Program-made: the position numbers and the translations under genes
NCBI GenBank assembly: GCA_000004985.1
Contig: GG738898.1
DNA: 64,000 bases
Source: Naegleria gruberi
Taxonomy: Eukaryota
Strand: one strand, 5' to 3'
The notes under the pieces: generated by a model
What the model saw: the letters and a program-made list of their open reading frames with translations, nothing else
Databases searched by the model: none
Told to the model about the DNA's origin: nothing
Part shown: positions 701 through 29,200 of the stretch, in pieces
How positions within the stretch are numbered: the stretch's first letter is position 1
Layout: each line of letters starts with the position of its first letter

Positions 701-745
701 TAGGATTAATTACTGATTTCAACAAACTGTTTATATTTTGAATTC

Positions 746-1948: not shown

Positions 1949-3198
1949 TTTTCTGATGATTAATTAAATATTTTTTTTATCCACTAATCTGCCGATTAAG
2001 GATCGCAGTAATGTACTAGTGATCGATATTATACTCATTGAGAATTAGGAAGTGCTAGATTGGATAGTATTAATATCATGATCCTTAATATATTCTTTTA
2101 AGATAACTTTATTTCGTCAGGTGTGTGGGAACCAAAGGTATTTAAATTGATGAGTAATCAGTGAAGTGCACAATTAATAATAATCAAATTAAACTCCAAG
2201 CCAATCAAATTATTTGTTCCAAGCTAGATAAAAATCCTAACGCAATTCTAGAATAATGGACATGTTAATTATCAAATAATATGATCAATCATTACTGTTG
2301 ATGAAAACTTGTAGTTTAAATTTACGGAACACAAAAGTTGCAAAATTACCCTGACACAATTAGTTTGGTGAGGAAATTGTTGTCGTTTTCTCAACAAAAA
2401 TCAAGATGAAAATCCAATATTATGTTCAAAATTCTATTCACAATGAAGACATCACATCTAATTCAATTTTTGCATTCTCTTTTATTTTTTAAAACAACAA
2501 AATTAACTTCAGCACTAACAATTATTATGGAACCCCTGAACAGAGCAATGCAGTGGACAACCTTCATGAAGGCTTTTCCAATATATATTATCCAACAAAA
2601 CAACAAGAAAGGAACTTTGATATTTAATGTATTTAAATGGTTGAAATGCAATTACAATCTATACAACAACATTTTCGATATTGAATATTCAAAACCCATT
2701 ATCGCTATGAAGTTGATGATATCTAACCCGATGTCATTTACTGTGGTGTCACCTTATGAAAGTCACAGCTCTTATTGTGCTTTGGTAACCGAAAATAACT
2801 CATCTCACCTGCCTTTAAATCCCTTCCGAATCTTGCCTTCCTATTTGTATTCATTTGGCCAATTTCATTCCTCAATAGAAAATTATCATTTTGCCTCAAT
2901 AAGATAATCATTAACAAAACGGAACCTATTATCAAATATTTGGTGACTTACAAAACCTCAGCGAATCAACAAGAGAAGCAAATTTCAATATCAACCATGC
3001 GAGCTTTCAGTTTCAACCTGTCAGTGTCGGAAATGCAACAGGTTAAAATCCATCATCTATCCCACCATCATGAGGCGAGTCATCCCAAATAACGACTTGG
3101 AATCGTATGAGTCACCTATTAGCTGTTTCCTTTCTTTTAACGGCATCCATTATTATCATAACCATTTCTTCATCATTAAAAAAAAATCAGAATATTAT

Positions 3199-4192
3199 AT
3201 GGCTAATACTGTACTTGGTAGCACAACCGCTGCTAAACATGCAGTTGGTTTCAACCTTTCATTGTTGGTATGTAGATTTCACTTTGTTTATTGTCTGACA
3301 CTTGCTTGCGCACTATACTTTTGACATTTGGCGTTCAATAATTTTTCACACTCCATGCGAAAATGTTTAATATACACAAATATCTATTGCGAATTCGAAT
3401 TAACAGAAAGGTGGTACTATTACCCAAACAATTATTGGTGCAATTATTACAGCTTTGGTAATTGCTTCAACCGTTGCAACCATTATCTTGGTTTCTGTTG
3501 GTGTTGGTTACAATCCACCAGTTGCGTAAGTATTATCTAATTTATTCGAATTAATTTACGAATCTAAATTCTTTTTCACAGTGCCAATGACTTTGCTTCT
3601 ACTTATAAGAGAATGCCAGTCACTGTCGATGTACTCATAAATGATAACGATCCACGTGGTGGTAATCTTACTTTGACTCAAATTGTTAATCAACCAAAGT
3701 ATGGTACTGTCAAGATCCTTTCTCGTTCCCAAGTTGTTTATCAATCCATTGGTTCTTTCTCTGGAAATGACACTTTCAGTTATGAAGTTAGTAATTCCTT
3801 TGTTACAGCCAATGCTACTGTTACTGTTCAAGTTTTGAATAGACCTCCTCAAGCTGTTCCAATCTATAAGAAGATTTCCAAGAATGCTCATAAGGCCCTT
3901 GTCGATATTTTCAATTATGTTGGTGACAATGATGAAAGAATTAGTGATATCGATAATGATGTCTTGTATGTTACTGGCTTCGCTGATCAACAAGTTATCA
4001 GTGGTAATGCTCAAAGTTTGGGATCCATTGAAGTTGACACTTACAATGGTTTCTTGTACACTCCTGTTACTGGTTTCAATGGTATTGAAAAGTTTAATTA
4101 CACAATCTCAGATGGTAATGACACTGCTTCTTCAACTGTTACTGTTGAAGTTGAAAATGATGCTCCTATTGCCGTTGATGATTACTTTAGAA
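3199..4192 (+). CDS. VCBS/cadherin-like tandem-repeat membrane protein, copy 1 (3' end lost in assembly gap)
   Basis: Exon 1 is 3199-3267 (MANTVLGSTTAAKHAVGFNLSLL), with donor GTATGT at 3268. Exon 2 is 3407-3525 and encodes a TM helix (GAIITALVIASTVATIILVSVGVGY), with donor GTAAGT at 3526. Exon 3 starts at 3582 after acceptor CACAG and runs into N at 4193. Exon 3 encodes ~95-aa repeats with PVAVDD ... (V/N)L(I/A)ND(N/Y)D signatures. This is a paralog of 60163..>64000. Confidence 0.8.
3582..4192 (+). repeat. Segmental duplicate of 60802..61412 (same strand, 57,220 bp apart) with a sharp identity boundary
   Basis: Positions 3631-3875 differ from 60851-61095 at only 2 positions by eye, with no indels. 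Positions 3582-3630 against 60802-60850 are only about 70% identical. Beyond 3876 identity falls to roughly 88-90%. Introns and exons 1-2 are much more diverged. Confidence 0.8.
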
Positions 4193-4802
4193 NNNNNNNN
4201 NNNNNNNNNNNNNNNNNNNNNNNNNNNNNNNNNNNNNNNNNNNNNNNNNNNNNNNNNNNNNNNNNNNNNNNNNNNNNNNNNNNNNNNNNNNNNNNNNNNN
4301 NNNNNNNNNNNNNNNNNNNNNNNNNNNNNNNNNNNNNNNNNNNNNNNNNNNNNNNNNNNNNNNNNNNNNNNNNNNNNNNNNNNNNNNNNNNNNNNNNNNN
4401 NNNNNNNNNNNNNNNNNNNNNNNNNNNNNNNNNNNNNNNNNNNNNNNNNNNNNNNNNNNNNNNNNNNNNNNNNNNNNNNNNNNNNNNNNNNNNNNNNNNN
4501 NNNNNNNNNNNNNNNNNNNNNNNNNNNNNNNNNNNNNNNNNNNNNNNNNNNNNNNNNNTCTGTAAACATGACACTTGTGTGAGTATTGACCATCCCTNNN
4601 NNNNNNNNNNNNNNNNNNNNNNNNNNNNNNNNNNNNNNNNNNNNNNNNNNNNNNNNNNNNNNNNNNNNNNNNNNNNNNNNNNNNNNNNNNNNNNNNNNNN
4701 NNNNNNNNNNNNNNNNNNNNNNNNNNNNNNNNNNNNNNNNNNNNNNNNNNNNNNNNNNNNNNNNNNNNNNNNNNNNNNNNNNNNNNNNNNNNNNNNNNNN
4801 NN

Positions 4803-6059
4803 GCGAAATTGTTGGGATGTATCCATTTTCGACAGTGGAAATGATTAGAATCCAATCTAAACCATTATCCTTAATGGTTGTCACACTAATTCTCCTACCA
4901 TCATATTGAAAAGATGAACTGTTAACTTTCAATGTCAAACTTTGAATATCATTAACTTTTTTTGAGTTATTTAATCGTAAAATATCACGTTTGTCAAGCT
5001 CGTTTGCTAATCGTTCGTTTCTACTATCTATTTCAGTCATTTGAAATCGTTTTCCATCTACTATATTCGGTTGAGAAAATGAATTCGAAACTAACATTCC
5101 ATTACGCTCAACCAAGACAATATCAATACTGTTGGTGTTCATGTCTAAGTGTCTACAGACTGTATTATTGAGTAATTGATCCATGTAGAATAGATCATAT
5201 TGCATTCCAATTATTTCTTCCACAAGAATCATTTCAGTTCCATTTTTAATAAATATTGGAAAATCCAATTTAGTAACTGCTGAAATTGATGGTGTGTTGA
5301 ACAGGTAGTGAATCCAAATATCTGTCCAAACGTATTGTGGGTATGTGTATTGATTAATATACCAAGGTCTTGTCGTGCAATCATACCCTCCTTTTTCAGT
5401 TGTCGTATTCGAAATTGGTTGAAAGTATTCGTCAAAATCAGACGATTTCAGTATGAGATCAGGTCCACTAGATTGAACTCTACTTCTATTCTTTGAAATT
5501 TCCAAACTAAACAATTGTTTTTGGCTATTTCCATAGGTTATTTCAGAGAAAGTCCTCGTAGACGAAATAATTGGTGCCAATTGACTCACCACTCGTTTAT
5601 AATTCTCAGTAAAATTCCCAATTTCATTGCCATAGATGTGTTGATGTAAAAAGAGAGAAGTTCTCAGATTGGATAAAATCTGTCTCGAAGTATGTACGAA
5701 ACCTTCCACCTCCCTTACAATATTTTCTTCTCTAATTTTGGAAGTGTTTGCAAGAGCTGTTTCTCCACTTTCCAATTTTGGATTTTGATTAAATTGTTGA
5801 AAACTAACCTCGAATAAATAATTATCAGCATGCACCCAATGCAGACGAATGTTTGTATGAGGAAAATTGAAAGGAAAATATTTTGAATGGTGTTACATTT
5901 CGAACAGGGAATTTTCCTTGGTGAAACAATTGTTTTTTCAATGTCGTCCGATTTTTCACAGGAGGACGATTCTGGTGGTGAGGTTATGCTTGTCTGCATT
6001 TTTTTGTATATGTGGGGGAGGTACCGTTTGTCCTTCTGTTGTCCAAAACCATTATCCAC
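4803..6059 (-). CDS. dCache (double Cache) extracellular sensor-domain membrane protein, N-terminal part (rest lost in gaps 4193-4802)
   Basis: Exon 1 is 6059-5809 and ends in a TM/signal-anchor segment (NIFLSIFLIQTFVCIGCMLIII). A 41-nt intron spans 5808-5768 (GTTAGT...AG). Exon 2 runs from 5767 to the gap in the frame of ORF 4132-5835. It contains a long helix and then the Cache hallmark GYDCTTRPWYINQY. Splicing is inferred because it joins the TM ORF in frame to the Cache ORF. Confidence 0.65.
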
Positions 6060-6524: not shown

Positions 6525-7034
6525 TCACTGATTACCACTACTCATCAATGAACTATTAGCACTACTACTACTACTGCTGCCACTATCCACTGACACCACT
6601 GACACCATTGCACTACTACTACTACTACTGCTGCTTGTTATCATTGAAGTGGAAGATTGATTTGGATTGATAATTGGCCGCACAACCATAGCTCCCATTA
6701 CAATTTGAGATTTTGGAGGTTTGTAATTAATTGTTGGCAAATGACTGATTGGTGTTAAGGGAGTAAATGCAATGCAATTTCCCTTTTCCAAATGAGATTT
6801 GAAATCAATCATGTTATCGACCAAGTAAACATGCTTCTTGCATGCTTTACAATATTTGGTAGAGTTTGATTTGGATTTCAATTTTTCAAATTTTAATGGA
6901 CATTCGTATAGCCATTCACAATTTTCAATAAATTCTGAGCCTTTAAAAGAGGGAAGGACGTGTTTAGTTTCTTGAAATGGAATTTTGATTGAATTTAAAT
7001 GTTGAATTCTCCTTCTAAGAATGTGTAAATAATT
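6525..7034 (-). CDS. Cys-motif (putative zinc-ribbon, CEWLYECP...YCKACKKHVY) plus poly-Ser tail ORF; either a separate small gene or the C-terminal end of the giant gene across the gap
   Basis: The frame is open from gap edge 7034 to the stop at 6525. It carries a C-x5-C ... C-x2-C motif and a Ser-rich C-terminus. The 5' end lies in N-gap 7035-7545, so the relationship to the upstream giant ORF cannot be read. Confidence 0.35.
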   Translation of the reverse strand, partial: NYLHILRRRIQHLNSIKIPFQETKHVLPSFKGSEFIENCEWLYECPLKFEKLKSKSNSTKYCKACKKHVYLVDNMIDFKSHLEKGNCIAFTPLTPISHLPTINYKPPKSQIVMGAMVVRPIINPNQSSTSMITSSSSSSSSAMVSVVSVDSGSSSSSSANSSLMSSGNQ

Positions 7035-7545
7035 NNNNNNNNNNNNNNNNNNNNNNNNNNNNNNNNNNNNNNNNNNNNNNNNNNNNNNNNNNNNNNNNNN
7101 NNNNNNNNNNNNNNNNNNNNNNNNNNNNNNNNNNNNNNNNNNNNNNNNNNNNNNNNNNNNNNNNNNNNNNNNNNNNNNNNNNNNNNNNNNNNNNNNNNNN
7201 NNNNNNNNNNNNNNNNNNNNNNNNNNNNNNNNNNNNNNNNNNNNNNNNNNNNNNNNNNNNNNNNNNNNNNNNNNNNNNNNNNNNNNNNNNNNNNNNNNNN
7301 NNNNNNNNNNNNNNNNNNNNNNNNNNNNNNNNNNNNNNNNNNNNNNNNNNNNNNNNNNNNNNNNNNNNNNNNNNNNNNNNNNNNNNNNNNNNNNNNNNNN
7401 NNNNNNNNNNNNNNNNNNNNNNNNNNNNNNNNNNNNNNNNNNNNNNNNNNNNNNNNNNNNNNNNNNNNNNNNNNNNNNNNNNNNNNNNNNNNNNNNNNNN
7501 NNNNNNNNNNNNNNNNNNNNNNNNNNNNNNNNNNNNNNNNNNNNN

Positions 7546-10500
7546 GAGTGTGGATAGGAACAGGATTTTCATAGTGATGATGTTCCATATGTAATTCCAC
7601 ATCTGCTGATGAAATTATTGGCTTGTGATGAGAATCATCTTCCACTTGTGGAGTTTGTGGAATTTGTTCCTCTCCTTCCCATGCTCGTTTCACATTGGCA
7701 ACAAATGTTGTTGGAATACCAGTTGCTTGTTGCATAGTACCATCCACTTTGAGTGTTCTTGTTGATGATTGCTTCTCAAAGAGGTTACTAATATTGTACG
7801 TAGTGGTGGTTGTGGTGGCTGTGGTAGCTGTGGTGGCAGGTCTTTCTGAAATACAGTCTTGTGCATTCAAACTTTCCAAATTAACTTTAGAATTAATTGG
7901 TAGGATACTATTGATAGAGTATTTGAGTGATCTTGAAGTTGCTGGTGTTGATGGTTTAGTTGATGATTGACTGTAAATAGAACTAGATGGTTGAATAACA
8001 TGATGGTCAATCAAGTCTATGGAATCAACAACTTGTTGTGGAACAACCGAATTCTTCTTAATCAGGTCCAAATTCAATTCCTTGATAGAAATGACAGAAT
8101 TTGCAGTGGATGGCCTCTTGTCTTCCTCTTCAGTTGGACGAGTTGGTGTAGATGGTATTTCTTGATCGGGATTATATTCCTTTCTAGGAATGTAAAAATT
8201 TCCTTCAATATCTTCATGACTTGGAACAGCAATTTCACTTTCGTCACCATAATGTTTCTTTGAAGGAAGCTTAATCTTTTGTGGTTTGAGGTCATCATGA
8301 GTAACATAGGACAAGTGACGAAGAAGTTTTGGAATAGGACGTGGTCGAATAGGTCTGACCGGTCCAGAACCTTCCTTTGGGTTGGTGGAACCATGCTTAT
8401 TCTTTGAATTCTTGGTATTTCTCTTTCTCATAAAGAAACATACAAGGAAAAGCAACAAGAACATGCAGGACAATCCACATACTATGGCTGCTGAAAACAC
8501 AGCTGCTGCAACGTACATGTACGAGTAGTGAGAAACTGTGGCAGTCTGGATGACAAAGACATTGGTAAAGTGAGAACATTTACAATAGGCATGTGTATCA
8601 TTCTTCAGTTGGAGGGAACATGAGTAGGTAACTTCAGTAGTTCCATCTAAAAAGTCTGCACATGCATAACTGTCTGTTTCCTCTGTAAAATCGAATGAAC
8701 TTGCTGTACTAGATGTAAGAGTACTTGTAGTATTGATGGGAATAATGTAAATGAGGCCATCTTCCTTCATAGGAACACTCAAGTCCGTGAATTCAACCGA
8801 GACAATTGGAGAAATAAGACTTGACGTTCTAGTTGTCGAGGCAGAAAGTTTTTGTGAAAGTTTTAGCTTTCTATCAAGAGAAAACACATCATCTGTTACT
8901 GTCATTACGTACGTGAATGGTTTTTTAACAAGTGATGATACCTTATTTTCAAAAACAAAGAAATTGTCTGGAATTAGAACAGAAGTAGATCTTTCAGAGT
9001 CAGTAATGATATTCTCATAATCATAAATGGTACTTTTACCCATAATCATGGAGAAGAATGGTCCTTTGGTTCTAGTAATAGTACGAGAAATGTACATGTC
9101 TCTGGTTTGAAGATTTGACGACATTTTGAGTGCGGATAATAATTTTCTAGAATTGGAAGTTTGGTCAGTAATGTACTGTCTTTCCATAATGTAGTCATGG
9201 ACAGATTCAACACAAGCATTCAATAGGTTTTGCACACCTGGAGATAATTTGATTTTTCCAGAATCTTGGGCAGTTGTTAAAAACCTATTCAGGGTGCATA
9301 ATGCCTCTGAAATTGTCTTGGAATTGAGGAAATGATAATTAACAAGGATTGAATCAACAGCAAATGAGAGTAGAGAAATGTAATCCTCATTCAAACCATC
9401 AGTCTTATTCATACTTGTAGTAATATCATTTAGGACAGTTAATTTGCTCTTTTGGATGTTAGAAAAATCTCTAATGGAGGTTTCACAATGAGTACCAATA
9501 TATCCATCAGCACACTTGCATTCGCCTGAAACTTCTACACCACTTATACATTGAAGATACTTGGTTGATCTTTCATTTATGGAACGCTTAAATGATAAAT
9601 CTCCAAGGGTTTCTTTCAATAGAACCGAATCTGTTCTAGAAGTAGAGGCAGATTGATAGATGCTCTTACTGAAATGACCTTCGGACATGTAGGTTGCACT
9701 CACCCCTGACCAAGTCGATACAATTTCTTGAACTTGTTCAATGTCTGTTACTGTTGGTTTGGAAATTGTAATATTCTTCTCCATAAGAGTTGTACCGCCT
9801 GTGACAGTATTGATAATTTCAAAGAAACAAGTCACTGTATCACCATAGAATGGTGCAGGTAGTTTGGAGGCAAACACTTCACCAAGGTTGTACAGATAAA
9901 TCTTGGATCCTGATCTATCATCCAAAAAGCCATACTTAAAGTCAATATTTTCATCTGGATTTTTACAATTGGTACAATAGAAATCAAATTCAGTTTCAAG
10001 TGCAATACCTGTTGATGGATTAATGGAGCAATCACATGGTTTTGGAATGGAAGCCATTGAGAATGCATACGCTGTTCTCACAGTAACACCAGAAGAAGTA
10101 TCTCTTGCTGCAATAGTAAGAGTATTGGTTGAACCCTGCACAAGCAAGGTTGTATCTATGACTCCTGTCACCATTTCTGCAGCACCAACTTGCTGTACTA
10201 TGAATTTAGACTTGTCAAGAATCATTCCATTGAGAACCCATGTGGTTTCTGTGGAGGAAGTTATTTCTGATGAGATTAAAGTTTGAACGGAAAGTTTTTG
10301 CCCAGGAATCAAGTATTGAGTAGTAGGATTAATATCAAGGATATTCACCACAGGTGGAATATTATTAAAGTAAACAATGGTGGACTTTTCCACAATTCTG
10401 TCAGTTTTGGAGACTCTTAATCGAAGTTGAAGTGATGAAGGAACAATCATGCTTCCAAACAGGGCTGAATCAATGGTGAATAGCTTGGCTTTTGTGCTTG

Positions 10501-13500
10501 AAATGGATCGAAGCAAACTGAGCAAATCAGGATTGCCACTATCTAAGCAACTCCATGTCCATGTTTCCACTGATTCATAATTGATGGCATCCTCTGGATC
10601 ACTGTATTCCACTTTAATGACTGTATATGTCTTTCTGGATTCTAATTGAACAAGATTTAGATAGAGGTCTGGAGATTTTGTTGTCAATGTCACAGTAGAG
10701 GTTGAGGAGAGTGTTGGATTTGAAGCATAGTAAGCTTTCACTGTGAATGAGTAGCTCACACTTCCAAAAGTTCTCAATCTAGAAATGTACAAATTGTTAA
10801 ACTTGTCTACAGTGAATTCTATGGCAGGCCCTGATGTTTGAGCCCAATCAATTGTAACAGATTCTGATGCACATGTTGACTGAGTAACAACCTTCTTGAT
10901 TGAAGAAGGAAAATCTGTTGTGAGCTTTTCAACCAAGGATGGAGCCATCACTAAAGGAAGAGGTTTCTCAGACTTGACAAATTCCCTCGAATATACATAA
11001 GGACTAATAGTATTCAATGAAGGGCTATGGACCTGAAGCATCATTCTATATCTTCCAGCTGGAAGTGATGCTTCCAACTTGATAATAGCTTGATTGGGAT
11101 AACTATTAGATACAATTTCAAAGGTAGTTGCATCGAGTAAGGACCAATAATAGCTCAATTGCTTTCCATCATTGGAGTGGCTCAGAGTGCCATCTACACT
11201 AATTTCATCACACGAACTAAACATGTCTATATTGGCCATACTAATGAAGGCAGTTGGGGTGTTATTCTGTAAGGGCATGACAACTGGAATGGAAATATAT
11301 TCCTCTCTGGTTGTTAAGTTATTGTATCTATCGTAGACGAGTGTATTCAATTTGATTGATTGACCACTTTCTAATGTATAATCAATTGAACCAAAAGTGA
11401 TCATGAAAGCATAGCTTGCCTTATTCAAATATTTACATTTCACATTAGAGAAGGAACCATAAACATTTCTGGACCTATCTTCTGAACTGATAAGATTCGA
11501 GCACGGAATTTCCACACCAGTAAATGCTGTTGGGAGGTTGAGTTTAAATACTAATCCAGAAAAATCGGAAAGAATAGTGGCAGGTCCTTCAATCTTGGTT
11601 GCACAATTAATTCCATAATAGCCATTCAAACAAGTGTCACATAAGGAGCCATTCCAGAATCCACGTTCAAAACTTGAATAACATTTGCAAGTCAAATCAG
11701 ATTTACATTCTCCATTATTGAAACAATTATTTGCACAAGTACTATTTACAACAGTTGTTGGAGTACTGCTTGAATTATTGCTAGTATTGCTAGTTGCATT
11801 GTTTGAAATCGGTGGAACTATAACCTCGTTACTTGTGTTGTTTGTTGGAGTGGTTGAGTTTTCATTGGGAATGGTAATGTTTGGATGTAATTGTTCTGAA
11901 CAATTAAATCCCAAGTATCCATCCTTACATTTACAAGTGTCAAAATCAGTACACTGACCATTACCAGAACATACTAACTCAGATGTGGATTTAACAGAAA
12001 AGCAAGTTGTGAAATTACAGTTTGGTCCAAAATATGGCAAGTTACAGTCACAATGATTGAAAGATTCACACCTACCACGGGATTGACAAACAAGGGATTC
12101 ATTACTCAATACACCAAAACAACTTGTCACAGAGCAATCACTTCCAAAGCTATTTGGTTCACATTCACAAGTGTCCAAGTCTGAACAAACTCCTCTTTGA
12201 GAACAAACAGTCATATCTAACTTGGATTTACCGTAGCAATAAAAGTGAGAGCAATCTGGGCCAGAGTATCCTTTGTTGCAGACGCACGTATCATGACTTG
12301 TACAACTACCACGGCCAGTACACGTCTCAGAGCTATTGGACGATTTTGAAAAACATGTAGTCAACTCGCAATTCATTCCAAAATAGTTTTCAGCACATTC
12401 ACATTGGTCGAACTCAACACATTTTCCTCTGGAATTACACACAGAAGAGGAATTTGATGGAATATTGTGGCATAGAGGAATTTCACAATTAGATCCAGTA
12501 TATGAAGAATTGCAAGAGCAATGATTTAAGGTGGAACAATTTCCTCTTGAATTGCATACATTTGGATCATGAGAAGAAATTCCAAAACATGTAGTGTACT
12601 GACACCAAGGTCCTGCATACTCTGATGGACAATGGCACTCATCAACCTTTGAGCAATTTCCAACAGAATTACATACTTTGGAAGAGTTTGAGGCAATTCC
12701 AAAACATGTAGCCAACTCGCAATTTCTTCCTGTATACTTTTCATTACATGTACAATTATCTGGTGAATGGCAAGGGCCGTGATAGCTACAAACTGAAGAA
12801 TTACTATCCTTAATACCAAAGCATAGAGAACCAAAGCAATTATCACCATAAGAGCCGTGGTTACAAATACATGTATTCGAATCGGTGCATGAACCATGTC
12901 CAGAGCAAACACTGGATTGGTTATTCATTACACCAAAGCACTTGTAATTTTCACAATTGGATCCATAATAACCTGATTTACATTCACACAGATTGTAATC
13001 TTTACAAGAACCATGCGCAGAGCAAACATAAGAATCATTAGAAGCAATACCTGCACAATAGCTCTTTTCACAGTTGGTTCCAAAGTAGTGAGCTGAACAA
13101 GAACACTTATCGGCAGAGATACATTGGCCATGAGAGGAACAAACTGAGGAAACATTACTTAAAACTCCATTACATTGTGTTACTTCACAATGCTTGCCAA
13201 AATAATCCTTTAAACATGAGCAAGTCTCAATGTCAATACAAGTGCCCCTTCCTGAACAAACTTTAGTATCGGTACTGAGTGTACCATTGCATTTGAATAG
13301 TTCACATTTGCTTCCTGAGTAACCACTCTTACATGTACAGTTATTGAAATTAGAACAGGTACCATGAGAAGAACAAACTGAAGAGCTATTAGAAAGAGTT
13401 CCATAACATGAAGAAACCTGACAAGTTGAACCATAGTAATTTGCTGAGCAGATACAATTATTGAATGAGCTGCAATAACCATGTGAGTTACAAACACTTG

Positions 13501-16500
13501 GAGATGTTGAAAGTTGAGAGCCGCAGGTTGTAATCTCACATCTAGACCCCGAGTAATGATCTTGACACGTGCAAGTGTTTGGGGATGTACAATTTCCATG
13601 TGAGCTACACACAAGAGATGAATTGCCTGTTGTACCATTACATATTGGAATTTCACACCTACTTCCCAATGAATTTGATGAACAAGCACATGTATCAGTA
13701 TCTACACATGTTCCATAACCAGTGCACACTTTTGGAGATGTATTCTTGATGCCAAAACAATAGTGTTCTGAACAATTTTGCCCAAAGTTACCTTGAAGAC
13801 AAGAGCAATTATTAAACTCTCCACAAATTCCCTTTCCAGAACAAACAGAGCTAATGTTTGATAGGAATGAATAGCAAGAAGTAATTTCACATTGACTTCC
13901 CATGTAATTATTCAAACATGAGCATGTATTGAATCCAACACATGTTCCCCTTGATGAACAGACAGATGTATCATTACCAAGTTTTCCGTAACATTTAGAG
14001 ATGGAACAATTATTTCCGTAATAATTATTGGAACAAACACAAGTGTCAATATCCACACATGTTCCTCTTCCAGAGCAAGTCTTGTTCGAATAGTAAGGAA
14101 TGTCGTAGCACTTGTAATCAGAACATGTGCTGCCATAGTAGGTGTGATTACATTGACAATTATTGTAACTAATGCAGGAACCTCTTCCAGAGCATACATA
14201 CTTGCTGTTAGAGAAAACTCCAGAACAAGTAGTCAATTCACACCATTGTCCCAAATAGCCAGTTTTACAAAAACAAGTATCAGGTGCTATGCAACTACCA
14301 TGCGAATTACATACAGTGGTATCATTGGAAAGTGTTCCATTACATTGAACCACACTGCAATCCATTCCAGAATAGCCAATATTACATTTGCAAGTATCAG
14401 GACTAGTGCATGATCCTTGACCACTACAGACAAAGGTAGAATTGGATGAAGAAATTCCATAGCAACTTGTCTCCTCACAATACTCTCCAAAATATCCACT
14501 ATTGCATTCACAAACTTCGTTGGCAATGCATGAACCCCTTCCTGAACAAACAAAAGATTCATTATTACTTAGCATGCCATTGCAAATGTAGAGCGAACAA
14601 TCTGTTCCATAAGCTCCATAATTACACTTACAGCTGTTGTAGTCGATGCATTGTCCATTTCCAGAACATGTACTATTGTCATTGGAGTTGATACCATAGC
14701 ATTTTGTAAAGTTACAGCTGTTGCTTAAATATGGCTCAAATGGATCGAAACTCTTTGGTGGTTCAAATATGACACTCTCTAAAATAACATACGAGTTGAG
14801 AGCCCATATAGATCCAGCAACTGTTCCATGCACGTATAGATAGTCATCCTTGGTGGCTGATATAACAGTACCAGCTATTGGTTTTGTGGAAGAACCCCAC
14901 ACTTGTGATGAAGATCCAACCACCCAGTATAAATTTCTATGTGAGGCACAATTTAAAAAGGTAATACTTGAATTTGCATAATAGAGTGACGGAACCTTAA
15001 TTACTACTGGCTCTGTTCCAATAATAACAATATTTTGAGTTGGTTTTACAAACCAATTTGTTAAAAAACAAAGAACAGCTCCATTTCTAATGATTAGAGT
15101 TGAAGAGACATTGGTTGAGGTTAAGTATTGTGTACATGCCATATTTTGAATGAGATCAATTGATTTTGTCATTTCATCAACAAGCATCTGGCCAATTGGC
15201 TCAGAGGTCAAAACAATTGAAGCATTCTTATTTGGCAAGTACGGGAAGTATGAATATTCTTGTAATTCTAAAACCATACTAGCTGTCAATAACTGATACT
15301 CTCTTCCTATTGAGGAAATGACATGTTTTGAGCAGATCACTTTGTAACCGGCGAATATATCAGTCTTGAGTTTTTCGCAATTTTCACCTCCAAATCTATT
15401 TCCACATTGGCAAGAATTGAAATCAACACATTTTCCATTTCCAGAGCAAACATTGCTATCATTGGATGGGATACCGTGACATGAATTAATTTCACAGAAA
15501 GGACCATCATAATTAAGAAAACATTTGCAAATGTTGTAGTCTGTACAAGTACCATGTGAGCTACAAACTGAGGAAACATTTCCAAGAGTTCCATTACATG
15601 TTGTAATAGAACAATTTAAACCTAATCTGTTAGCTCCACATTGACATGTGTCTGGACTTGTGCATGAGCCATGGCCAGAGCACACTGAACTATTAAAATT
15701 ACTCACTCCAAAACAGTCATAATTGGAGCAATGGTTTCCATAGTATTTGTCTGAGCAGGTGCAATTTTCAAAAGAAGAACATTTTCCATGAGTAGAGCAA
15801 ACCAAAGAATCATTTGAAAAGATGTTTCCACATTTTGTTATATCACACTCCTGTCCATAGTAATGTTCTTCACAAGAACAATTGTTAAATGGCCAACAGA
15901 TTCCTCTTCTGTGGCATACCTCACTGTGATTGGAGAGAATTCCAAAACACAATGTCATTTGACAGAATTCTCCAAAATAATTTGAGGAACAATTGCACAT
16001 ATCATTAGCTGTACACGATCCATAACCATTGCAAACATTAGTGTCATTACTAAAAGTTCCATTACATTTAGAAATTTCACACTCATATCCAATGTAATGC
16101 TCAAAACAAGAACATGAATCTTTTTGAGAACAATTTCCTCTTCCACTACAAACAAAACTATTATTCATATTACTCACACCAAAGCATTCGAAATATTCAC
16201 ATTCAGAACCCGAATATCCAGGTTGGCAAGAACAATTATTGAAATCATTGCACTGCCCAAATCCCTTACAAACGAGTGAGGAGTTTTGTTGAATACCAAA
16301 GCAGGTTACAAACTCACAATATTTTCCGTAATACCCTTCTTTGCATTGGCATGTTTCTGGTGCAATGCAAGTTCCTCTTTCTCCATGACATTCTCCTATC
16401 GTACCATTACAAAGAGGTATTTCACACTCTGATCCTCCGTAGCCCAAAGTTGAATTGCAAGAACAGTTATTGGATGATATGCATTTACCTCGTTCATTAC

Positions 16501-19500
16501 AAACAAGTGGAGAGCTGTATGAATAATTTCCACACACATAGTCAGGCGCAATTTCCAAAATCGTAGTATTGGTACTGTTTGAAGGTTCTGAAATATTAAC
16601 CGAAAATGAACAATTCCCACACAAAGTTTGATTCCAATAAGTTTCATTGAGGGGATTGCTATTATTCGAAACTGTAATGTTTTGCTGCGTATTGGTACTG
16701 TTCATAGTAATGGTTTCATTTGAGAATAGAGTGGAAGAATTTAAAGTATAGTTTTCTGAGGGTGTACTATTGAAACCTAAAGTAGTACTATTGGTTTCCA
16801 CACATGATGAACAATTAGCTGTTGTATTGGAAGAAATACTCTCATTATAGATTGTAGAGTTGGATATTTCTAATGTGCTACTACTGGTTTGATTGTTAGA
16901 GATTTGATTATCAGAATTGTCTTCATGTTTGGTTTGATTGTTAGAATGGCTGGTTTGATTTTCACTTGAGGAGGAAAAATTCGATAGAATATTTGTGGAA
17001 TTATTTGTGAGAGTTTCATTCAAGGTTTGGTTGAATGTTTGAGAATTATCTTCCAATTCTCTTCCAAATTTGTGCGCTGAGTTGTTCAAAGTGCAATTAC
17101 TTCCCACTGGACAGTTTTCTAAAGCTGTCGCATTTTCCAGCAGAGAGCTAGTTGTCTCATTGAGTGATGAGGTATTAAGAGTGGTGGAGTTCTGAGAGAA
17201 TACAGTTCCATTCACTGTGTTATTTGACTGGAAAGAAGTGTTCCACGAAGCAATTTCACTACTGGAATTAGTTGTGCTCTCAAAAGTAGTGTTGAACGTG
17301 AACGTATGATTCGACAGAATTCCAGTGCTGTTCTCCAGACCTGTTTGATTGAAAATAATTGATGAGTTCATGCTGTTATTACAATCGGGAGATGTTACAT
17401 TGAGAGAGGTATTGATCCAAATCGTGCTGTTTCCTCCTTCATACGTATCAGAACTGTTGTAATGTTGAAGGATTGTTCCATTTGAGGTACTAGCATTATA
17501 ATTTTCACTGCTTGTAGTATTTTCCCAAACGGATGAATTGGAAAAGATAGTCGATTCGTTAGAGTAGGAAGTGAAATTCGATTGTGTGCCATTCCCCATG
17601 AACCATTCAGTTGAATTAGTAACAGATGTACTGTTCTTGTCTAAGGTTTCATTTGTACCATAAAGACAAGTATCACATGTGATGTTCAACACTGTGTAAT
17701 TGGAAAAGTTTGAAGAGTTACTAGTCAAACTCTGATTGGTGGCCAATTCGGTGTTGTTAAGACGAACATTTGAAAAATTTCCTGTAGAATTGCTTCCTAC
17801 TTCTAAGGAATTGTTGGTTACATTATTTGTACTGGTAGAATTATCAGAAATGGTGGTATTAGTATTAGTTCCAGTAGAATTATCCGAATCAGTTCCGTTT
17901 GTTTGACCAACAAAGTTAGTTCCATTATTTGATTCAGTAGTATTACTTGAAGAGGTGCCATTTGATGGAGTATTATTAATAGTTGAATTAGTGTTTGTTT
18001 CATTAGTATAAATAGTTCCATTATCCAATTCAGTAGAATTAGAAGAGAAAGGAATGGTTTCATTGAACGAAGTATGTTCGTTTGTAAGATTGTGATTTGT
18101 TATATTACTTTTGGTATTTTCTAACTTGGTTTGATTTACCATATTTGTAGCATTGAGCTGTGTATTGTTTGCTAAATTCGATGAACTATTAAGGGACAAG
18201 CTATTTGTCTCATTTGAAAGGATTGTGGAATTTATGACAGTTTGATTTTCTCCTTGAAATATTTCAGTTACTGTCCCATTATTGAATGGAGAGGTACTAT
18301 TCTCATAACTTTGGTTGTAAAAGCTTTGATTAGTGACAACGGAATAGTTTACAGTGGTGTGATTAAAGTCGTGAGTTATGTTGCCATGTACTACACTACT
18401 GTTGCTCACTGAATTATTCTCAGCCCTTTCAGTTATATTTAACACTGTAGAATTTCCTTCAGATTCACTAACTTTTCCTTTTGTTGGTATTGAATCATTA
18501 AGATTTTCACTGCCATTCTTTGAAATAGGATTACTTGAATTTGTAAGTTCCGTATTGTTTTCTGCTATTAAAGAAGTATTAGAAATACTGTGGTTTGTTT
18601 TTTCATGGTTTGTATTATTCAAAATGGTGCCATTAATTGTTTCATTCAAAGATATAATAGAGCTGTTACTACTTGTAAAGTTATGCATTTCTGTATCATT
18701 AAGCTGAGATCTGGTAATATTATTATAAATAGACTCATTAACAAATGATATCTGTGTTGCATTAAGAGATACAGAATTGTTAGACAATAGAGTATTATTC
18801 TCTTCGGAGTATCTCGTAAAGTTAGCATGGGTTTGATTAAGATTAGTACTATTTATCAGTGTGGAATTATTTTCATTCACTGTTCTATTCAATTCAGAAT
18901 GGTTATGTGGAGGTGTTTCAGTGCTGTTTTCTACAACTTTGTTTGAACTATTGCTGAATGTTGAATTCCACTGGTCAGTGACATTGAACGAAGTATTTGA
19001 AAGTGGATTTGTTGAATTGAGTAGACTTGAATTTGATACAGTACTTTGGTTGCCAAGGGAGGAGCTGTTCCCAAAGGTTTCTGTTCTGTTTACAAATTCG
19101 TTTGTGTTGTTATCCAAAGAGTTTGATCCTGTTATGTTACAGTTTGTATTATTTAAAGCAGCTGTAGTATTACTATTCTCTGTTGCATTAGCAAATCCGA
19201 AAGTGCCATTAGATAAGGAATTGTTGAAAGTTGCAGTATAACCCAAGTTTAGGGAATTGTTTGAATTTGTATTGGTGATGTTTCCTAATTGTGTACTTTC
19301 TGTGTAATTTAAATCATTCGTAGAATTAGAAGAAGTGAAATTCTGATTTGTACTGTTATTGGTATGTTCATTACTTGTATGGTTTGTTGTTGTGTTATTT
19401 TCCACCAATGAATTATTTAGTGCTGTAGTGTGATTTTGAACAAAAGTCTCATTGTTCAAGGTTTGTGTGTTATTTACACCAAATAAAGTCTCATTATTCC

Positions 19501-22500
19501 CTGATTTTCCTTCCAAAGTTTGATTCCTGGTTTCGTTTAAAAAACTTGAATTAGTGATAGCAGTATTATTTTCCAATACTGAAGATTGATTGTGTAACTT
19601 TGTGTTATTCTCAAATAGAGTGGTATTAATTGTCTGAGAATCGTCGATCATAGACGTTGCGTTAGTGTTAATTGTGAGATTCTCATTATTAACTGTAGAG
19701 TTTGTTTCAATACTGGGTACAGATGAGCTATTCTGATTCTCAGTTTGGTTGTACCTACTATGAAGAGACTCGTTCCCTATCATTGTTTTGTTTTCATTTA
19801 TCAGGGTGTCATTATTTACAAGAATTGTAGAACTAATAGATCCATTGAGGTACGTATCATTGAGTTGAAAGGTAGATTCATTAAGGAAGTTTAGACTTGA
19901 ATTCAAATTTGTATAGTTCACAGATATTGAAAGTGTTTGATTTTGTGATTTGATATTGACAAAAATGGAACTGTCATTCCTCAGAGTTTCGTTCAATGTT
20001 ACATTACCAACTGTGGTGACTTTGGTAGAATTTTCTGAAGAATTTCCATTCAAGAAACCGGTTTGGTTACTTATTGCCGTTCCATTTTCGGCAGGCATTG
20101 TTTGCTTTTCGAAAGTTGTAGTGTTGTTTTCAGCAAAACTATTATTTTCGGGCCTTGTGGTATTTTGAGTGGAAACTGTAATAGACATATTGCTAGAAAT
20201 TTCTCTGGTGATGTTGGAGTTTGTCATATTAGGATTAGTATTTGCCAAGTTATTAACCACTGAGCCGTTTTCCTGCAACGTTTGATTTCTTGTTTCCAAG
20301 CTGTCATCAGATCTAGATGTCGAGTTACTAGCAATACTGGTATTTGTTATTGAAATAGTTGTGACATTACTTTGTTCAGTGTTGTTCCAATTGGTTGAGT
20401 TCATTGTTTTGTTGCTTTCAAGGTTTTCTAGTGTTAAGTTCTTTGAAGACGTTTCATTAAGAAAAACGGTTTTGTTTGTAATAGTATCTTGTGAAGAATT
20501 ACCTCCGTTAGTATTATTGCTAGTGGTGATATTGAAAGATTCTGTGCGATTGATAAATAAATCAGAAGTGTTGTTTAGCACAAGCAATGAACTGTTAAGG
20601 TTAGTGGAGTTCTCAAGTGTTATGGTTGAATTGATTGAGATTGTTGAATCATCCAAAACAAACTGGTTTGTATTATTCAAATCTGTTGAATTACTTGTTT
20701 CATTCACCAATAATACGGAGGTATTAGAATAGCTATTGGAGAGTGTGTTATTCTCAATAGCATCAGTTGTATTTAAGCCTGTTGAATTCACAATTGATAA
20801 ACCTGATTCGTTAGAATGGTTTGAATAGTTATCAAACTTTGAGCTGTTGCTCCCGGTTAATGAAAAGTTGGCTACATCATTAAAAGTTGAATTATTAACA
20901 AGACCATGTGATTGACCCGAGGGACCGCTAATTGTTTGGTTTTCTGGGAAATGACTAGTGTTGAGCCTTGTTGTATAATTTGAATCAAGAGTGTTATTAG
21001 AAATAATGTCTGAACTAGCATTATTGGAAATTCTTGTACTATTCCCAGTGGTCATGGTACAGTTATTTGAATCATTAGAAGTAATATTTGAAACAGTACT
21101 ATTTGAAATTGTTGAATTGTTCACTGTTTCATTTCCTTGCTTAGTAGCTATGGTTGCATTCAAATCAACAGAGGAGTTGGATGGAACACTTGGAATATTA
21201 GATTCGTTTGAAAAATTTGTAATATTATCAAACCTAGAGCTGTTTCTCCCATTCAAAGTTGAGTTTGTAAGGTTATTAAATGTTGAATTCTCGAATGTCG
21301 ATAGGTTACTCCCACTCAGTGACGAGTTGGTAACATCTTTTAAGGTTGAATTATTAACTGAAGTAATGTTGGTTTCATTCTCAATACCAAATGATTGATT
21401 TGAGGGACTACCACTATTTGATAATGTTTGGTTTTCGGAGCTATAACTCGTGTTCACACTAGTTGCATTTTTTGAATCAACAGTGTTATTATTAGTCATG
21501 TTTGAACTAGTATTAGATAGTATTGTATTGTTAAAAGTTTCATTTCCTTTTTGTATAACAGTTGAATTCAATTCTAAAGTAGTATAGTATATACTTGTAT
21601 CATTTTGTTCAATAGATGAATTATTTGATAAGACGGTCTCATTTAGAATAACAGATCGATTATTCCAAGTACTGTCACTTGCATTTGTTTCATTTAGTGT
21701 GACAGTTACGTTATATGTCAGACTTGTATTGAAACTGGTCTCATTCTTAATTTGTCCATAAGAATTGTTCATTGAGGATGTTTCATTTGGATGAATTAAA
21801 GTCTCATTAACATTTACATCTGATTGGTTTGATGCTGTGTAAGTACTATTCCTTCCTGGACCAGTAGAGTTATTGAAAGTCGTCTCGTTGTTAGATGTTG
21901 AATTGTTTGATGTCAATTCACTTTCGTTGAATGTTGTATTTGAAGATGATCCAGTATCGTTTTGTCCATTACTGCTAACATTTAAACTTGTTTGGTTTGT
22001 TAAAGAAGTATTGGAATACATAGAAGAGTTGGAAACTGGTTCGTTAGTAAAGGGTGTATGTTGATCGGTTGCATTGTCCAGTAATGTCGAGTTATTAACG
22101 ACGTACGAGGTAGTATTGCTCTCAAAATAGGATGTATTGCTCTCTACATTTAGCTCCGTAGTGCCATTACTGACTTGTGAATCAGTTGTTTGGTTATCTT
22201 CTCTAAATATTCCAGTACTATTTGTTGAACTAGTATTATTTACAAGACTACTATTATCGCTAGAAATAGTAGCATTATCAAAACTAAAGTTCTTGGCGGA
22301 TGAGGTATTAACTGCCTCTGTGATTGTGGAAGTATTACATGCCAAACCGGTGTATCCATCTGTACAATTGCAAGTATTAAAATCAACACAGGTTCCATAT
22401 CCACTGCAAGTTGATGAGCTGTTCGATTCCACATCAAAACAGTATGTATATTGACAATGTGTTCCAAAGAACTGTTCCTCACATGTACATGACGACGTTT

Positions 22501-22945
22501 CATTACTGAGCCAAGAACAGTTACCATGTCCTGAACATGTGATCATGGTACTGTTATTATACTCACTTTCATTCCATGTCTTGGCTATCGAAGAACACTC
22601 CACATACTCGCACTCTTCTCCATAAAATCCCAACTGGCATTCACATTCAGTGTCATTTGTACAATTTCCTCGTCCAGAGCATATATTTATGCTAAGATTA
22701 TCATCAGTGAATAGCCTTAATTTGCAACTGTTGTGTCCCGATGATGATGTAGCAATTACTTTCGATAAAATTGCTCTCTGAATTATTAAGCATTGTATCA
22801 CCAATATTATCATGATCATAATATTTGTTATTGTTGTTATTCGCGTTTTCCATTTTACTCGCCTCCACACTTTGAATTTCTCATCCAAAAAGGTTGCTCC
22901 TTCACACGTATGATGATGAGAGTGAAGATGAACACGAATCGGCAT
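7546..22945 (-). CDS. Giant (>5,100 aa) single-exon surface protein: signal peptide, EGF-like (tenascin/ComC-type) repeats, ~1,600-aa NxS/T sequon-dense stalk, ~60 EGF-like repeats, beta-rich REJ/PKD-like region, GPS motif, one TM helix, Ser/Thr/Pro-rich cytoplasmic tail
   Basis: This is an uninterrupted 15.4-kb minus ORF from ATG at 22945 to gap 7545. The EGF repeats follow a ~33-aa periodicity of C..SG.G.C.....C.C...Y.G..CE. A GPS-like ...C..F...YSCSLQLKNDTHAYCKCSHFTNVFVIQ sits immediately before TM VAAAVFSAAIVCGLSCMFLLLFLVCFF at about 8440-8520. Codon usage is consistent throughout. Confidence 0.85.
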
Positions 22946-26267: not shown

Positions 26268-29200
26268 TTAAATATTGCAATTGATGGAATGTTTTTCCAA
26301 GAGTGGAATTAAATCATTCTTAAACTTCTTCTCAAGATAGACACTCATTTGGAGATTTTGCTTACTGACATGTTTTCTACGTTGTGTGAGACCTTCTTTG
26401 AGTTGGTAGGCAAGTTGAGAGAGTCTGGTCTTGTATTTCTCAATTAAGAGTTGATTTTCCTCAGTGAGATTTTCGAGAGCCTCTGGTGATAGGTAGCGTT
26501 CCACATCCTTGTAGATTCCTCCGTGAATTCTTGGATCAATTAGGCCAGTCAGCTCAGAATCAAGAGAGGCTGTTAGTAAATTACTTTCATTCAATTTGTG
26601 GCTAACGACCAATTCCTGAACAGCATGAATTCTCAATTCTAAATAGTAAATGGCCACTTCAAGACTGTTCAATTTGAAGAGCTTCTTTTCACGAACTTCC
26701 TGAATGGTGTACATGTTAGGGAATGGTTTCTTGATGGCAAAGAAGAAAATTGAGCCATCTTGATCATCCATTGATTGTTTTGGTTCATCCATATTGCCAG
26801 CACTTGCTGATTTTTCCTCTGTTTGTTCTCTCTTAACTTTGACTCTTTTGAAAACTTTGATATTGTGACTCTTGTGATATTGTTGAATCTTTGGTGAGAT
26901 AGTTGGATCTAATAATTTGAAACTATCCTCCCCAGTAGTTTCATCCATGAAAGAGTTAATTTCCTGTTGACTGGATGGCTCAACTGGGGCCAAAAAGATA
27001 ACTTGCTGTTCACTGGTTCTGAATTTAGTCTCATCGAAACTGGATGGAATTTCTCTCTTAATAGTAGCTCCCTTGAATTTGAGTTTGATAAAGTTGACAA
27101 AATCTGCAAGTTTTTGATGATGAGCATTAAAGATAAAGTTTGTGTTCGACATGGATTTACCATAAAATCCAACAAAGTAATACTTGTTGTACTCTCTGAT
27201 GGAGGTGACAATCTTCTTGTAGAGCTTACTCTCCTCTGAGTGAACCACTGACAATTCGGCATAATTCATCTTGTTCTTGTAAATGACACGAAGCTCCTCA
27301 TTGAGAGAGATGGCTCTTTCCCAATCCTTACCCTTCTCGAACAAGTCAATAACTTCCTTGTAGAGTTTAATCTTTCTTGTACACTCTGGCTCTTCTGGAT
27401 AATTGTCAGAGAAGAGAGGCAACTCAATGTTACTATTAAAGTTTAACATTTGTGCATGTTGGAAGATGGCAAGACCAGCTTCAATATAACGTTTTCTACT
27501 CTTCTGCATACTAGCCAACAAGTGCAAATACTTGAAATACAATTGAACATTGCTATTCTTCTTGAAGGATTTGAGAGCGTTCTTGAAGGACTTTTCTTGA
27601 TTTTGGAAATTCATGGTATTTGGATCATTGGTGCTGGCAGCCTCGATATCTCTAATTTGTTTGAGCAAGTGATGAAGAGATTCCATTAAAACATCCATCT
27701 TGTTTGCAAATTCATCCTCTGCCTCAGGTCCCAACAATTCTACCATCAGTTCCTTGTAAGATTTGAGCTTGGATTCAACACATGAAATGAATGTTCTCCT
27801 AACTCCTTCAAGACCAGAAACTTCACTGAAAAATCTTTCAGTTGCAGCTTCACACAATGACAAGGAATTTCTAGAAATATGCTCCAATTTCAATAAATCA
27901 AAGAATAAATTCTTGGCCACTGATGCAATTTCAGAGACATGAATCTTGAACAATTTGATTGTCTTTTCGATTAAATCAGGAAGGAGACTTTCTTGCAGTT
28001 GTAGTGGTGAAAAGCTCCAAATACAATCATAAAAGACCTGTAGAATTCCGTGACGAGTATCGTTTTGACTGAGGAAGAGTTTTCTGTCATAGGATGGCAT
28101 CTTTTCTGGTTCAAAACTAAAGATGGCATCAAACAAGTGCCTAACCAACAATTGAGAGAGTTTAACAATTCTATAAACATTAAACTCAGCAGGAGGTGAA
28201 TTAGTTGACACGGATCGTTCTTGTGACAAGTTGTGAATGGTAGTGATGGAGCAACCTTCCATGGTTGTAATGTACTTTTTCAACTTTAGGAAAATCATTA
28301 GAATAATGTTTGCAATTGTGCCGTATTGGTAAATGTTGAGTTGTGTCCAATTCTTTGGGAGTGGGTTCTTCTTGGATAGCACAATAGAAATCAAATCCAA
28401 GAGAAGGTCCTTTGTATCGAGTTCGGCAAGTTGTGAATTTTCATTCAAATTTGCAAAGATAGTATCCAAAACTCCCTTGAATGTTAAAAGATCTAAAAAG
28501 TTAACAATGGTGAGAATAATATCACAACTGATACGTTTGGCTTGGTTGATTTCTGGTTCAAATTTTTTGGCAATCAATGAATTATTTGTCCTGGCATCTC
28601 TAGTAGTGGAATCCAAAGTTTGAGTGGCTGTCTCTTGTTCAGTTCGCTCTCTGGAATATTCTGCCTCCAATTCTTCTGTTCTCTCCAGAGAAACATCAAA
28701 AGCCTCCTTCAACATGCTCAGTAAACCGAAAAAGTCAATCAAACTTGTGGCACATTCTTTCATCTTCTCTCTGTGCTCCTTGCTTAGAAGAGCAGTGTCA
28801 GTTTCCTCCTCACTAACAACAGTCATTCGTTCCGTTTGATGCTCGGAAGTTGTGGAGATGTTCAAATCACCCAGTCCAAAAGTACTCTTAAATGACTTGC
28901 CATCGTGTGACATACGAGTTTTGAAGAGATGAATAATCTTGTTCATGATCGATATTGATTTTGGTTCGAGGAAACATTCACTATAACCCTCAAGTGCCTC
29001 TAAAACTATTGGATAGAGAGTTTTAGATAGTGTTCCTTTTTGGAAAGGTTCTGAGGAAATGATATTATCAAAAAAGTGTAACTTTCGGTAAGATTCTTCT
29101 GCAGGTATGGCAGAGGAAAACTTTTCAATAATTCTTCCTAATCTATGTTCATTGAACAAATCTCGTACTGTTGTGAAAAAGTCTGGTGTCATTGTATCAA

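Follow-up and report, generated by a model that had tools for sequence, protein, structure and literature searches.

What does a GAIN domain do in a protein that has no receptor bundle behind it? The question is raised by a 15.4-kb locus at positions 7546-22945 of a 64,000-nucleotide stretch of Naegleria gruberi DNA (assembly GCA_000004985.1, contig GG738898.1; the whole stretch is referred to here as the window). The locus is an intact protein-coding gene. Its product exceeds 5,133 amino acids (aa) and is a surface protein of type I that crosses the membrane once. From the N-terminus the product consists of a signal or anchor segment, three EGF repeats, a 1,930-aa stalk with 303 N-x-S/T glycosylation sequons, ten EGF repeats, an ice-binding-like β-solenoid, 24 EGF repeats, a PKD/REJ region, one further EGF, a GAIN domain modelled as complete, one transmembrane (TM) helix and at least 294 aa of disordered tail (Table 1). 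Taken as a whole, we hold with moderate confidence that these features are best explained by a glycosylated, self-cleaving GAIN surface protein anchored by a single helix.

The reading frame itself provides the foundation for this interpretation. The gene lies on the minus strand, an orientation absent from the original prediction, and runs from 22945 to 7547 through 5,133 sense codons with zero stops, which bears out the predicted continuous open reading frame (ORF) of more than 5,100 codons. It is the sole long ORF overlapping 7546-22945, in-frame stops stand immediately upstream of M1, and the G+C content is ~32-38% in the region and ~35% in the genome. At its 3' end the frame enters an assembly gap of 511 N, which hides the stop codon. 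Tandem Repeats Finder found no DNA-level tandem repeats within the gene, so the protein repeats appear to be old and diverged; a recent repeat expansion was rejected on the same result.

Identification of the protein is carried by its membrane-proximal region. The β-rich REJ/PKD-like segment named in the original prediction is significant as REJ in Pfam (PF02010, 52.7 bits against a cut-off of 25, E-value 3.4e-14), with a K319L-like PKD match remaining sub-threshold (E 3.6e-4), and aa 3790-4445 are homologous to the REJ proteins P0025 (own REJ match at 1e-70) and P0044 (5e-50); paralog P0001 matches REJ profile positions 49-443. Further downstream the motif CKCSHFTNVFV starts at aa 4788, within a GPS motif containing four family-invariant cysteines (aa 4762, 4776, 4788 and 4790). 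The single sequence scores 14.6 bits with the Pfam GPS profile, below the cut-off of 22.5 (E 0.049). A GPS/GAIN match, whose absence the original prediction had named as refuting it, came from other comparisons: phmmer against PDB sequences aligns TYSCSLQLKNDTHAYCKCSHFTNVFVIQ to the GPS and first TM helix of ADGRL3 (E 0.0012), and a 15-member family profile matches ADGRL3 at 9.3e-8 and ADGRD1 at 7.6e-7. An AlphaFold2 (AF2) model of aa 4450-4850, with a predicted local distance difference test score (pLDDT) of 80.8 and a predicted template-modelling score (pTM) of 0.71, shows one EGF, a set of five long helices and a β-sandwich, and ends in a TM helix. Its top five Foldseek matches in the PDB are all GAIN domains, including ADGRB2 (2.1e-13), BAI3 (8.7e-13), CELSR1 (5e-10) and CL1 (7.8e-10), and the next match reaches only E 9e-5. 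Together, the family profile, phmmer and the AF2/Foldseek comparison all lead from the predicted GPS-like motif to GAIN domains, and the model supports a complete GAIN fold, with both subdomains, that ends directly before the TM helix.

By sequence similarity, the gene is a member of an N. gruberi paralogous family. Queried with aa 3791-4850, a full HMMER search covering 1.84 billion representative proteins returned 51 matches. A word-index homology search with aa 3740-4860 and with aa 4400-4850 gave no matches, although paralogs 40-46% identical, with shared identical words of 10 residues, are in its collection, and its negative was taken as a blind spot of the index. The top seven are 40-46% identical across the region from REJ to TM, and all five of those looked up are N. 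gruberi 'predicted proteins'. Other relatives occur in Willaertia magna, N. fowleri, Percolomonas, Stygiella and Trimastix. The N. fowleri relative is named 'PKD/REJ-like domain-containing protein', and its presence in a pathogen means that the family could be relevant to adhesion and to the antigens of the cell surface. Almost every member has a single C-terminal TM; three remote members, P0025, P0028 and P0044, instead have ~10-11 TM segments after REJ, and the Pfam GPS profile matches P0025 and P0044 at 5e-10. No model containing the REJ-GAIN-TM region of the giant ORF was present among the proteins scanned (no match of ~100% identity), and the gene may therefore be missing from the annotation. 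The literature searched yielded no papers describing this Naegleria protein family.

The second defining feature of the protein is its stalk, which measures ~1,930 aa (aa 206-2135) and is thus longer than the ~1,600 aa originally proposed. The hundreds of sequons predicted at one per 5-6 residues are present, with 303 N-x-S/T sites at a median spacing of 6 residues in the stalk and 388 in the whole protein. Across 2,000 composition-preserving shuffles the stalk gave 137.6 ± 8.6 sequons with a maximum of 167, which places the observed count 19 standard deviations above the control. Sequons take up 74% of the stalk asparagines, NxT outnumbers NxS (198 vs 105) though Ser is commoner than Thr, and the reversed control motif [ST]-x-N occurs 126 times. 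Hydrophobic residues are enriched at positions +3 and +4 after Asn, resulting in a loose six-residue unit, N-x-T/S-Φ-Φ-x, in a composition of 21% Asn, 34% Ser plus Thr and almost no Cys. This is apparently the pattern that selection for efficient N-glycosylation would produce, the sites being predicted ones, and 303 of them in 1,930 aa make the stalk an extreme case of such apparent selection. If expressed, the stalk would dominate the glycocalyx of the amoeba.

Several other explanations of the locus have to be weighed against these observations. The lack of a model for the REJ-GAIN-TM region in the searched protein collection, and an ORF cut by an assembly gap, are what a nonfunctional pseudogene or assembly chimera might leave behind, but 5,133 sense codons in AT-rich DNA are beyond chance, the domain order is colinear with that of complete paralogs, and the sequon enrichment and invariant cysteines indicate purifying selection; we give this explanation next to no credence. 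The gap also invites a different proposal, namely a polycystin-1-like multi-pass protein with further TM helices and a PLAT domain in or beyond the 511 N. The C-terminus is not visible, the remote relatives P0025, P0028 and P0044 carry their ~10-11 TM segments downstream of REJ, and immediately past the gap the same strand has an open frame of 169 codons. Hydropathy, however, detects two hydrophobic segments in the entire protein, aa 42-60 and aa 4810-4839 (peak window aa 4821-4839), the latter being the single visible TM helix of the original prediction; the cytoplasmic tail expected to follow it for at least 300 aa is visible for 294. In these 294 residues neither a hydrophobic segment nor any Pfam domain, PLAT included, was found (E ≤ 1), whereas in the PKD1 family PLAT, where present, lies directly after TM1 (PMC1934368). 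If its size is correct, the gap fits no more than ~170 codons, and all three post-gap frames are free of TM-like segments. The open frame (6525-7034, minus strand; NYLHILRRR...YCKACKKHVYL...SGNQ, then a stop), which has several Cys, a Ser-rich end and no Pfam match, could be a separate small gene with its 5' end in the gap and is less likely to be the far C-terminus of the giant protein. Moreover, all seven close paralogs end after one TM, and complete paralogs have one C-terminal TM with tails of 22-187 aa. The visible tail already holds motifs that occur at the C-terminal ends of paralog tails: SVVPQQVVDSIDLID (SVVP...DSIDLID; aa 4962-4977, ~8015-8062) and ADVELH (aa 5110-5116, ~7598-7618) are internal in the giant protein and resemble the ends of the tails of P0001-P0022, which are ...V[IV]P..DL[LMV]D in close paralogs and [IV]EL..[ST]V in distant ones. 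The latter end looks like a PDZ ligand. Single-pass topology is thus supported by the complete one-TM paralogs and by the lack of a PLAT domain, and we consider a multi-pass protein very unlikely.

Whether the GAIN domain cuts itself is a much closer question. Cleavage and non-covalent retention of the fragments are established for the GAIN domains of adhesion G protein-coupled receptors (hereafter aGPCRs) and polycystin-1 (PMC3321182, PMC1934368), in which the base is a His at P-2, the nucleophile is a Thr, Ser or Cys at P+1, and P-1 is an aliphatic residue, usually Leu (PMC3321182). In our model the turn joining the last two strands holds H4792-F4793-T4794, TNVFVIQTATVSHY forms the final strand and runs directly into the TM helix, and the register of SHF/T aligns with the H-L/T site of ADGRL3 with both His and Thr present. 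An alternative of lower but appreciable probability keeps the same architecture and leaves the GAIN domain uncleaved, as in uncleaved aGPCRs, so that it would act as a rigid juxtamembrane scaffold in a permanently intact adhesion or glycocalyx molecule. Several observations favour it and weigh against a self-cleaving protein: Phe occupies P-1; both conserved GPS tryptophans are gone from the motif, aa 4762-4800 containing no Trp at all; and in the aligned close N. gruberi paralogs P-2 is not His but K, Q, R, S or T, with cleavage-site residues KQL/T, VRL/T, SKL/T, KRF/T and STL/G. The BAI3 GAIN domain, with Arg at P-2, crystallised uncleaved (PMC3321182), and several of the best structural matches are GAIN domains in an uncleaved form: 8oek (ADGRB2, 'uncleaved state'), 4dlo (BAI3) and 8vy2 (CELSR1). 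Among distant relatives, the canonical C-x-C-[NT]-H-L-T-x-F with both tryptophans occurs in single-pass proteins from Trimastix and Stygiella, in P0032, P0038 and P0040 and in the multi-TM proteins P0025 and P0044, and the GPS tryptophans are also retained in P0034 and P0042. Nor is cleavage the only element of our preferred explanation that meets resistance, as the gap conceals the C-terminus, the hydrophobic stretch near the N-terminus could serve as an anchor that is never cleaved off, and we infer roles in adhesion, sensing and tail signalling from the architecture alone. On the other side, the giant protein is the only one of the aligned N. gruberi sequences to keep His and Thr in the exact ADGRL3 register, the one other P-2 His in the alignment belongs to Willaertia P0026 (SHA/T), which likewise keeps the Thr, and the TNVF strand after the site is strongly conserved. 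Judged from these residues, autoproteolysis of the giant protein is plausible at about even odds, and, since the close paralogs lack the P-2 His, autoproteolysis is by the same alignment not a conserved trait of the Naegleria subfamily.

The self-cleaving single-pass protein that we favour suggests a mechanism in which each module would have a part. Heavy N-glycosylation would extend the stalk into a mucin-like bottle-brush that keeps the EGF and β-solenoid binding modules a long way from the membrane; there they might adhere to or sense substrate, prey or other cells. In the endoplasmic reticulum the GAIN domain would cut its own chain between F4793 and T4794, with H4792 as the base and T4794 as the nucleophile, and the ~4,790-aa N-terminal fragment would be retained without a covalent bond, held by the last β-strand (TNVFVIQ...), which stays embedded in the GAIN domain. 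A pull on the ectodomain could then extract this strand and shed the N-terminal fragment. As there is no 7TM or 11TM bundle on which a tethered agonist could act, the output would be release of the ectodomain, in the manner of a mechanical fuse, and/or a change of state in the short TM-plus-tail fragment, whose conserved tail motifs may recruit cytoplasmic partners.

The distribution of these proteins also bears on the history of the GAIN domain. Its structure-model-supported occurrence in a single-pass Naegleria family with jakobid and preaxostylan relatives would widen its known range, and the Naegleria family provides a setting in which to study the role of GAIN where no receptor bundle follows it. 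We advance only tentatively, as a doubtful proposal, that an excavate GAIN domain lacking a multi-pass partner is a force-sensitive latch beneath a giant N-glycan 'mucin', convergent with the SEA domains of animal transmembrane mucins, and that the ancestral eukaryotic setting of GAIN was a single-pass adhesion protein, with 7TM and 11TM fusions arising later. Such an ancestral context would be suggested by the single-pass EGF-REJ-GAIN relatives in Heterolobosea, the jakobid Stygiella and the preaxostylan Trimastix.

The remaining modules lie farther from the membrane. A basic 41-aa leader precedes the hydrophobic residues 42-60, which probably act as a signal peptide or signal anchor; translation could alternatively begin at M43 or M45, and the paralogs P0001 and P0007 have similarly long N-regions. 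EGF repeats number ~39 by their C-x-C...G-x-x-C signature, well below the ~60 of the original prediction, and block 2 keeps a regular 39-aa period with six Cys per repeat. The best profiles are EGF_2, EGF_Teneurin and EGF_TEN, with E-values of 1e-40 to 1e-50, and in a 459-aa sub-segment EGF_2 (169 bits) and EGF_Teneurin (137 bits) exceed their Pfam cut-offs. The EGF_Tenascin profile matches weakly (E 0.0077), and an assignment as 'tenascin-type, 31-aa' repeats was rejected on the 39-aa period and on the better fit of EGF_2 and the teneurin profiles.

Between the two large EGF blocks lies a ~220-aa non-EGF domain that the original prediction did not include. The Pfam Ice_binding profile (PF11999) matches it at E 6.6e-5 and 23.1 bits, below the cut-off of 28.7. 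An AF2 model built from nine copies of the insert (pLDDT 77.7, pTM 0.79) shows a β-solenoid with one long helix, and its top 30 Foldseek matches in the PDB are all DUF3494-type ice-binding proteins (probability 0.98-1.0, template-modelling score ~0.5). Paralogs contain one to five copies each. From this model we read the insert as an IBP-1-fold surface or adhesin module; an antifreeze function was rejected, as the support is limited to the fold.

Table 1. Features of the giant gene and the adjoining gap, by position in the window.
Feature	Residues (aa)	Positions	Strand	Basis
ORF, 5,133 codons, 3' end cut by gap	1-5133	7546..22945	minus	translation
N-terminus: basic 41-aa leader, then hydrophobic aa 42-60	1-66	22748..22945	minus	hydropathy 2.54
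EGF repeats, n=3	74-205	22331..22726	minus	Pfam EGF_2 E 9.6e-14; regex count
Sequon stalk	206-2135	16541..22330	minus	sequon count, composition
EGF block 1, n=10, 39-aa repeats	2138-2523	15377..16534	minus	Pfam + regex
Ice-binding-like (DUF3494, IBP-1 fold) β-solenoid with one long flanking helix	2527-2745	14711..15367	minus	Pfam, AF2, Foldseek
EGF block 2, n=24, 39-aa repeats	2749-3682	11900..14701	minus	EGF_2 1.8e-50, EGF_TEN 2e-45 (sub-segment); regex
Short sequon linker and one 8-Cys EGF-like module (aa 3737-3783)	3683-3783	11597..11899	minus	translation, regex
β-rich PKD-like and REJ region (Pfam REJ aa 4262-4410)	3790-4445	9611..11578	minus	Pfam, homology
Single EGF directly before GAIN domain	4465-4488	9482..9553	minus	Pfam, alignment, AF2 model
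GAIN subdomain A, five long α-helices	4490-4617	9095..9478	minus	
GAIN subdomain B, β-sandwich including GPS motif	4623-4808	8522..9079	minus	alignment, family profile, AF2, Foldseek
Putative autoproteolysis site H4792-F4793/T4794	4792-4794	8564..8572	minus	ADGRL3 H-L/T alignment; DSSP of model
Single TM helix	4810-4839	8429..8518	minus	hydropathy 2.8; AF2 helix, model residues 361-400
Cytoplasmic tail, 294 aa visible, Ser/Thr/Pro-rich	4840-5133	7547..8428	minus	Pfam, composition, tail comparison
Assembly gap, 511 N, covering true C-terminus and stop		7035..7545	no strand	sequence

Other genes in the window form the surroundings of the giant gene. A segment on the plus strand is duplicated near both window ends (3435-4182 and 60666-61402, 89% identity), and one copy (60791-63235, plus) encodes 814 aa of arrayed repeats of bacterial Big_9 and cadherin-like type (Pfam E 8e-67 and 2e-54). 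The 443-aa ORF at 58046-59377 (minus) combines an N-terminal hydrophobic segment and an EGF module of the giant gene's 39-aa type with a short, significant match to the fibrinogen C-terminal domain (PF00147; motif DTDGGGWTMF; 27.5 bits, cut-off 22), which is unusual for a protist. At 52734-55366 (plus, with a gap at 53792-53864) an N-terminal hydrophobic segment accompanies an enhancin-like Peptidase_M60 domain (E 3.9e-44); this gene lies ~30 kb from the giant gene, and neighbourhood is the sole relation noted between the two. Ordinary signalling genes encode a multi-TM protein with PAS and adenylate/guanylate-cyclase domains (39359-44437, minus; E 1e-53) and a DOCK-type DHR-2 protein (26268-30146, minus), and the product of the ORF at 48332-49963 matches N. 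gruberi XP_002672353.1 without a difference, which assigns the window to N. gruberi NEG-M.

The known systems closest to the giant protein include its N. gruberi paralogs, annotated as 'predicted protein' (for example XP_002674088.1, XP_002673696.1 and XP_002669085.1). These share its module order, its sequon stalks, ice-binding-like inserts, single TM and short tails, and are 40-46% identical to it over REJ-GAIN-TM, but they lack the P-2 His and have less extensive stalks, the whole proteins containing 15-150 sequons each vs 388. XP_002674088.1 (4,968 aa, 150 sequons) nonetheless exceeds the giant protein in EGF repeats (61) and in ice-binding-like inserts (five). Outside Naegleria, the sea-urchin proteins SpREJ1, 8 and 9, which belong to the PKD1 family and have one predicted TM, share by their published description a REJ region and then a GPS upstream of that TM (PMC1934368). 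SpREJ1 additionally has an EGF domain, is ~50% carbohydrate and acts as a surface receptor for an extracellular polysaccharide (PMC1934368). The one-TM layout of REJ plus GPS thus has precedent, and, with a multigene family of the same kind in N. gruberi itself, the description of a single TM after a GPS as notable loses force. The sea-urchin proteins differ in that they come from animals, measure 1,450-3,274 aa and carry C-type lectin domains, and in that a 1,930-aa sequon stalk, arrays totalling 37 EGF repeats and an ice-binding-like domain are all missing from them.

Polycystin-1 and PKD1-like proteins share the juxtamembrane module of PKD-like, REJ and GAIN/GPS elements that defines the PKD1/REJ family, and for them H-L/T cleavage is documented and the fragments stay associated (PMC3321182, PMC1934368). 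Their 11 TM segments, PLAT domain after TM1 and channel-like C-terminal half were not found in the giant protein as far as the gap allows it to be seen, and identity as a true polycystin-1 was rejected on the lack of PLAT and of 11 TM. Adhesion GPCRs (ADGRL, ADGRB, CELSR and ADGRF among others) have in common with it the GPS register and long adhesive N-termini, often with EGF repeats, but they continue into a 7TM domain, whereas the giant protein has a single TM and then a hydrophilic tail. Tethered-agonist activation of a helical bundle therefore cannot apply, and aGPCR identity was rejected because the 7TM domain is absent. The GAIN-7TM fusion is reported to be holozoan-specific (PMC12716839), and GAIN domains outside animals have been reported in Tetrahymena and Dictyostelium (PMC3321182). 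SEA-domain transmembrane mucins such as MUC1 and MUC17 offer an analogy only, pairing a giant glycan-covered stalk and EGF domains with a juxtamembrane autoproteolytic domain, a single TM and a signalling tail; once autoproteolysis has occurred, the SEA halves hold together non-covalently until mechanical force parts them (PMC10556640). Their fold is SEA and not GAIN, their stalks are O-glycosylated Pro/Thr/Ser repeats rather than N-x-S/T arrays, and there is no homology. The domains and the one-anchor layout of the giant protein are thus already known elsewhere, and what is new is their combination and scale: an extreme sequon stalk and an ice-binding-like insert, in a protist lineage, encoded by a gene apparently absent from the searched collection.

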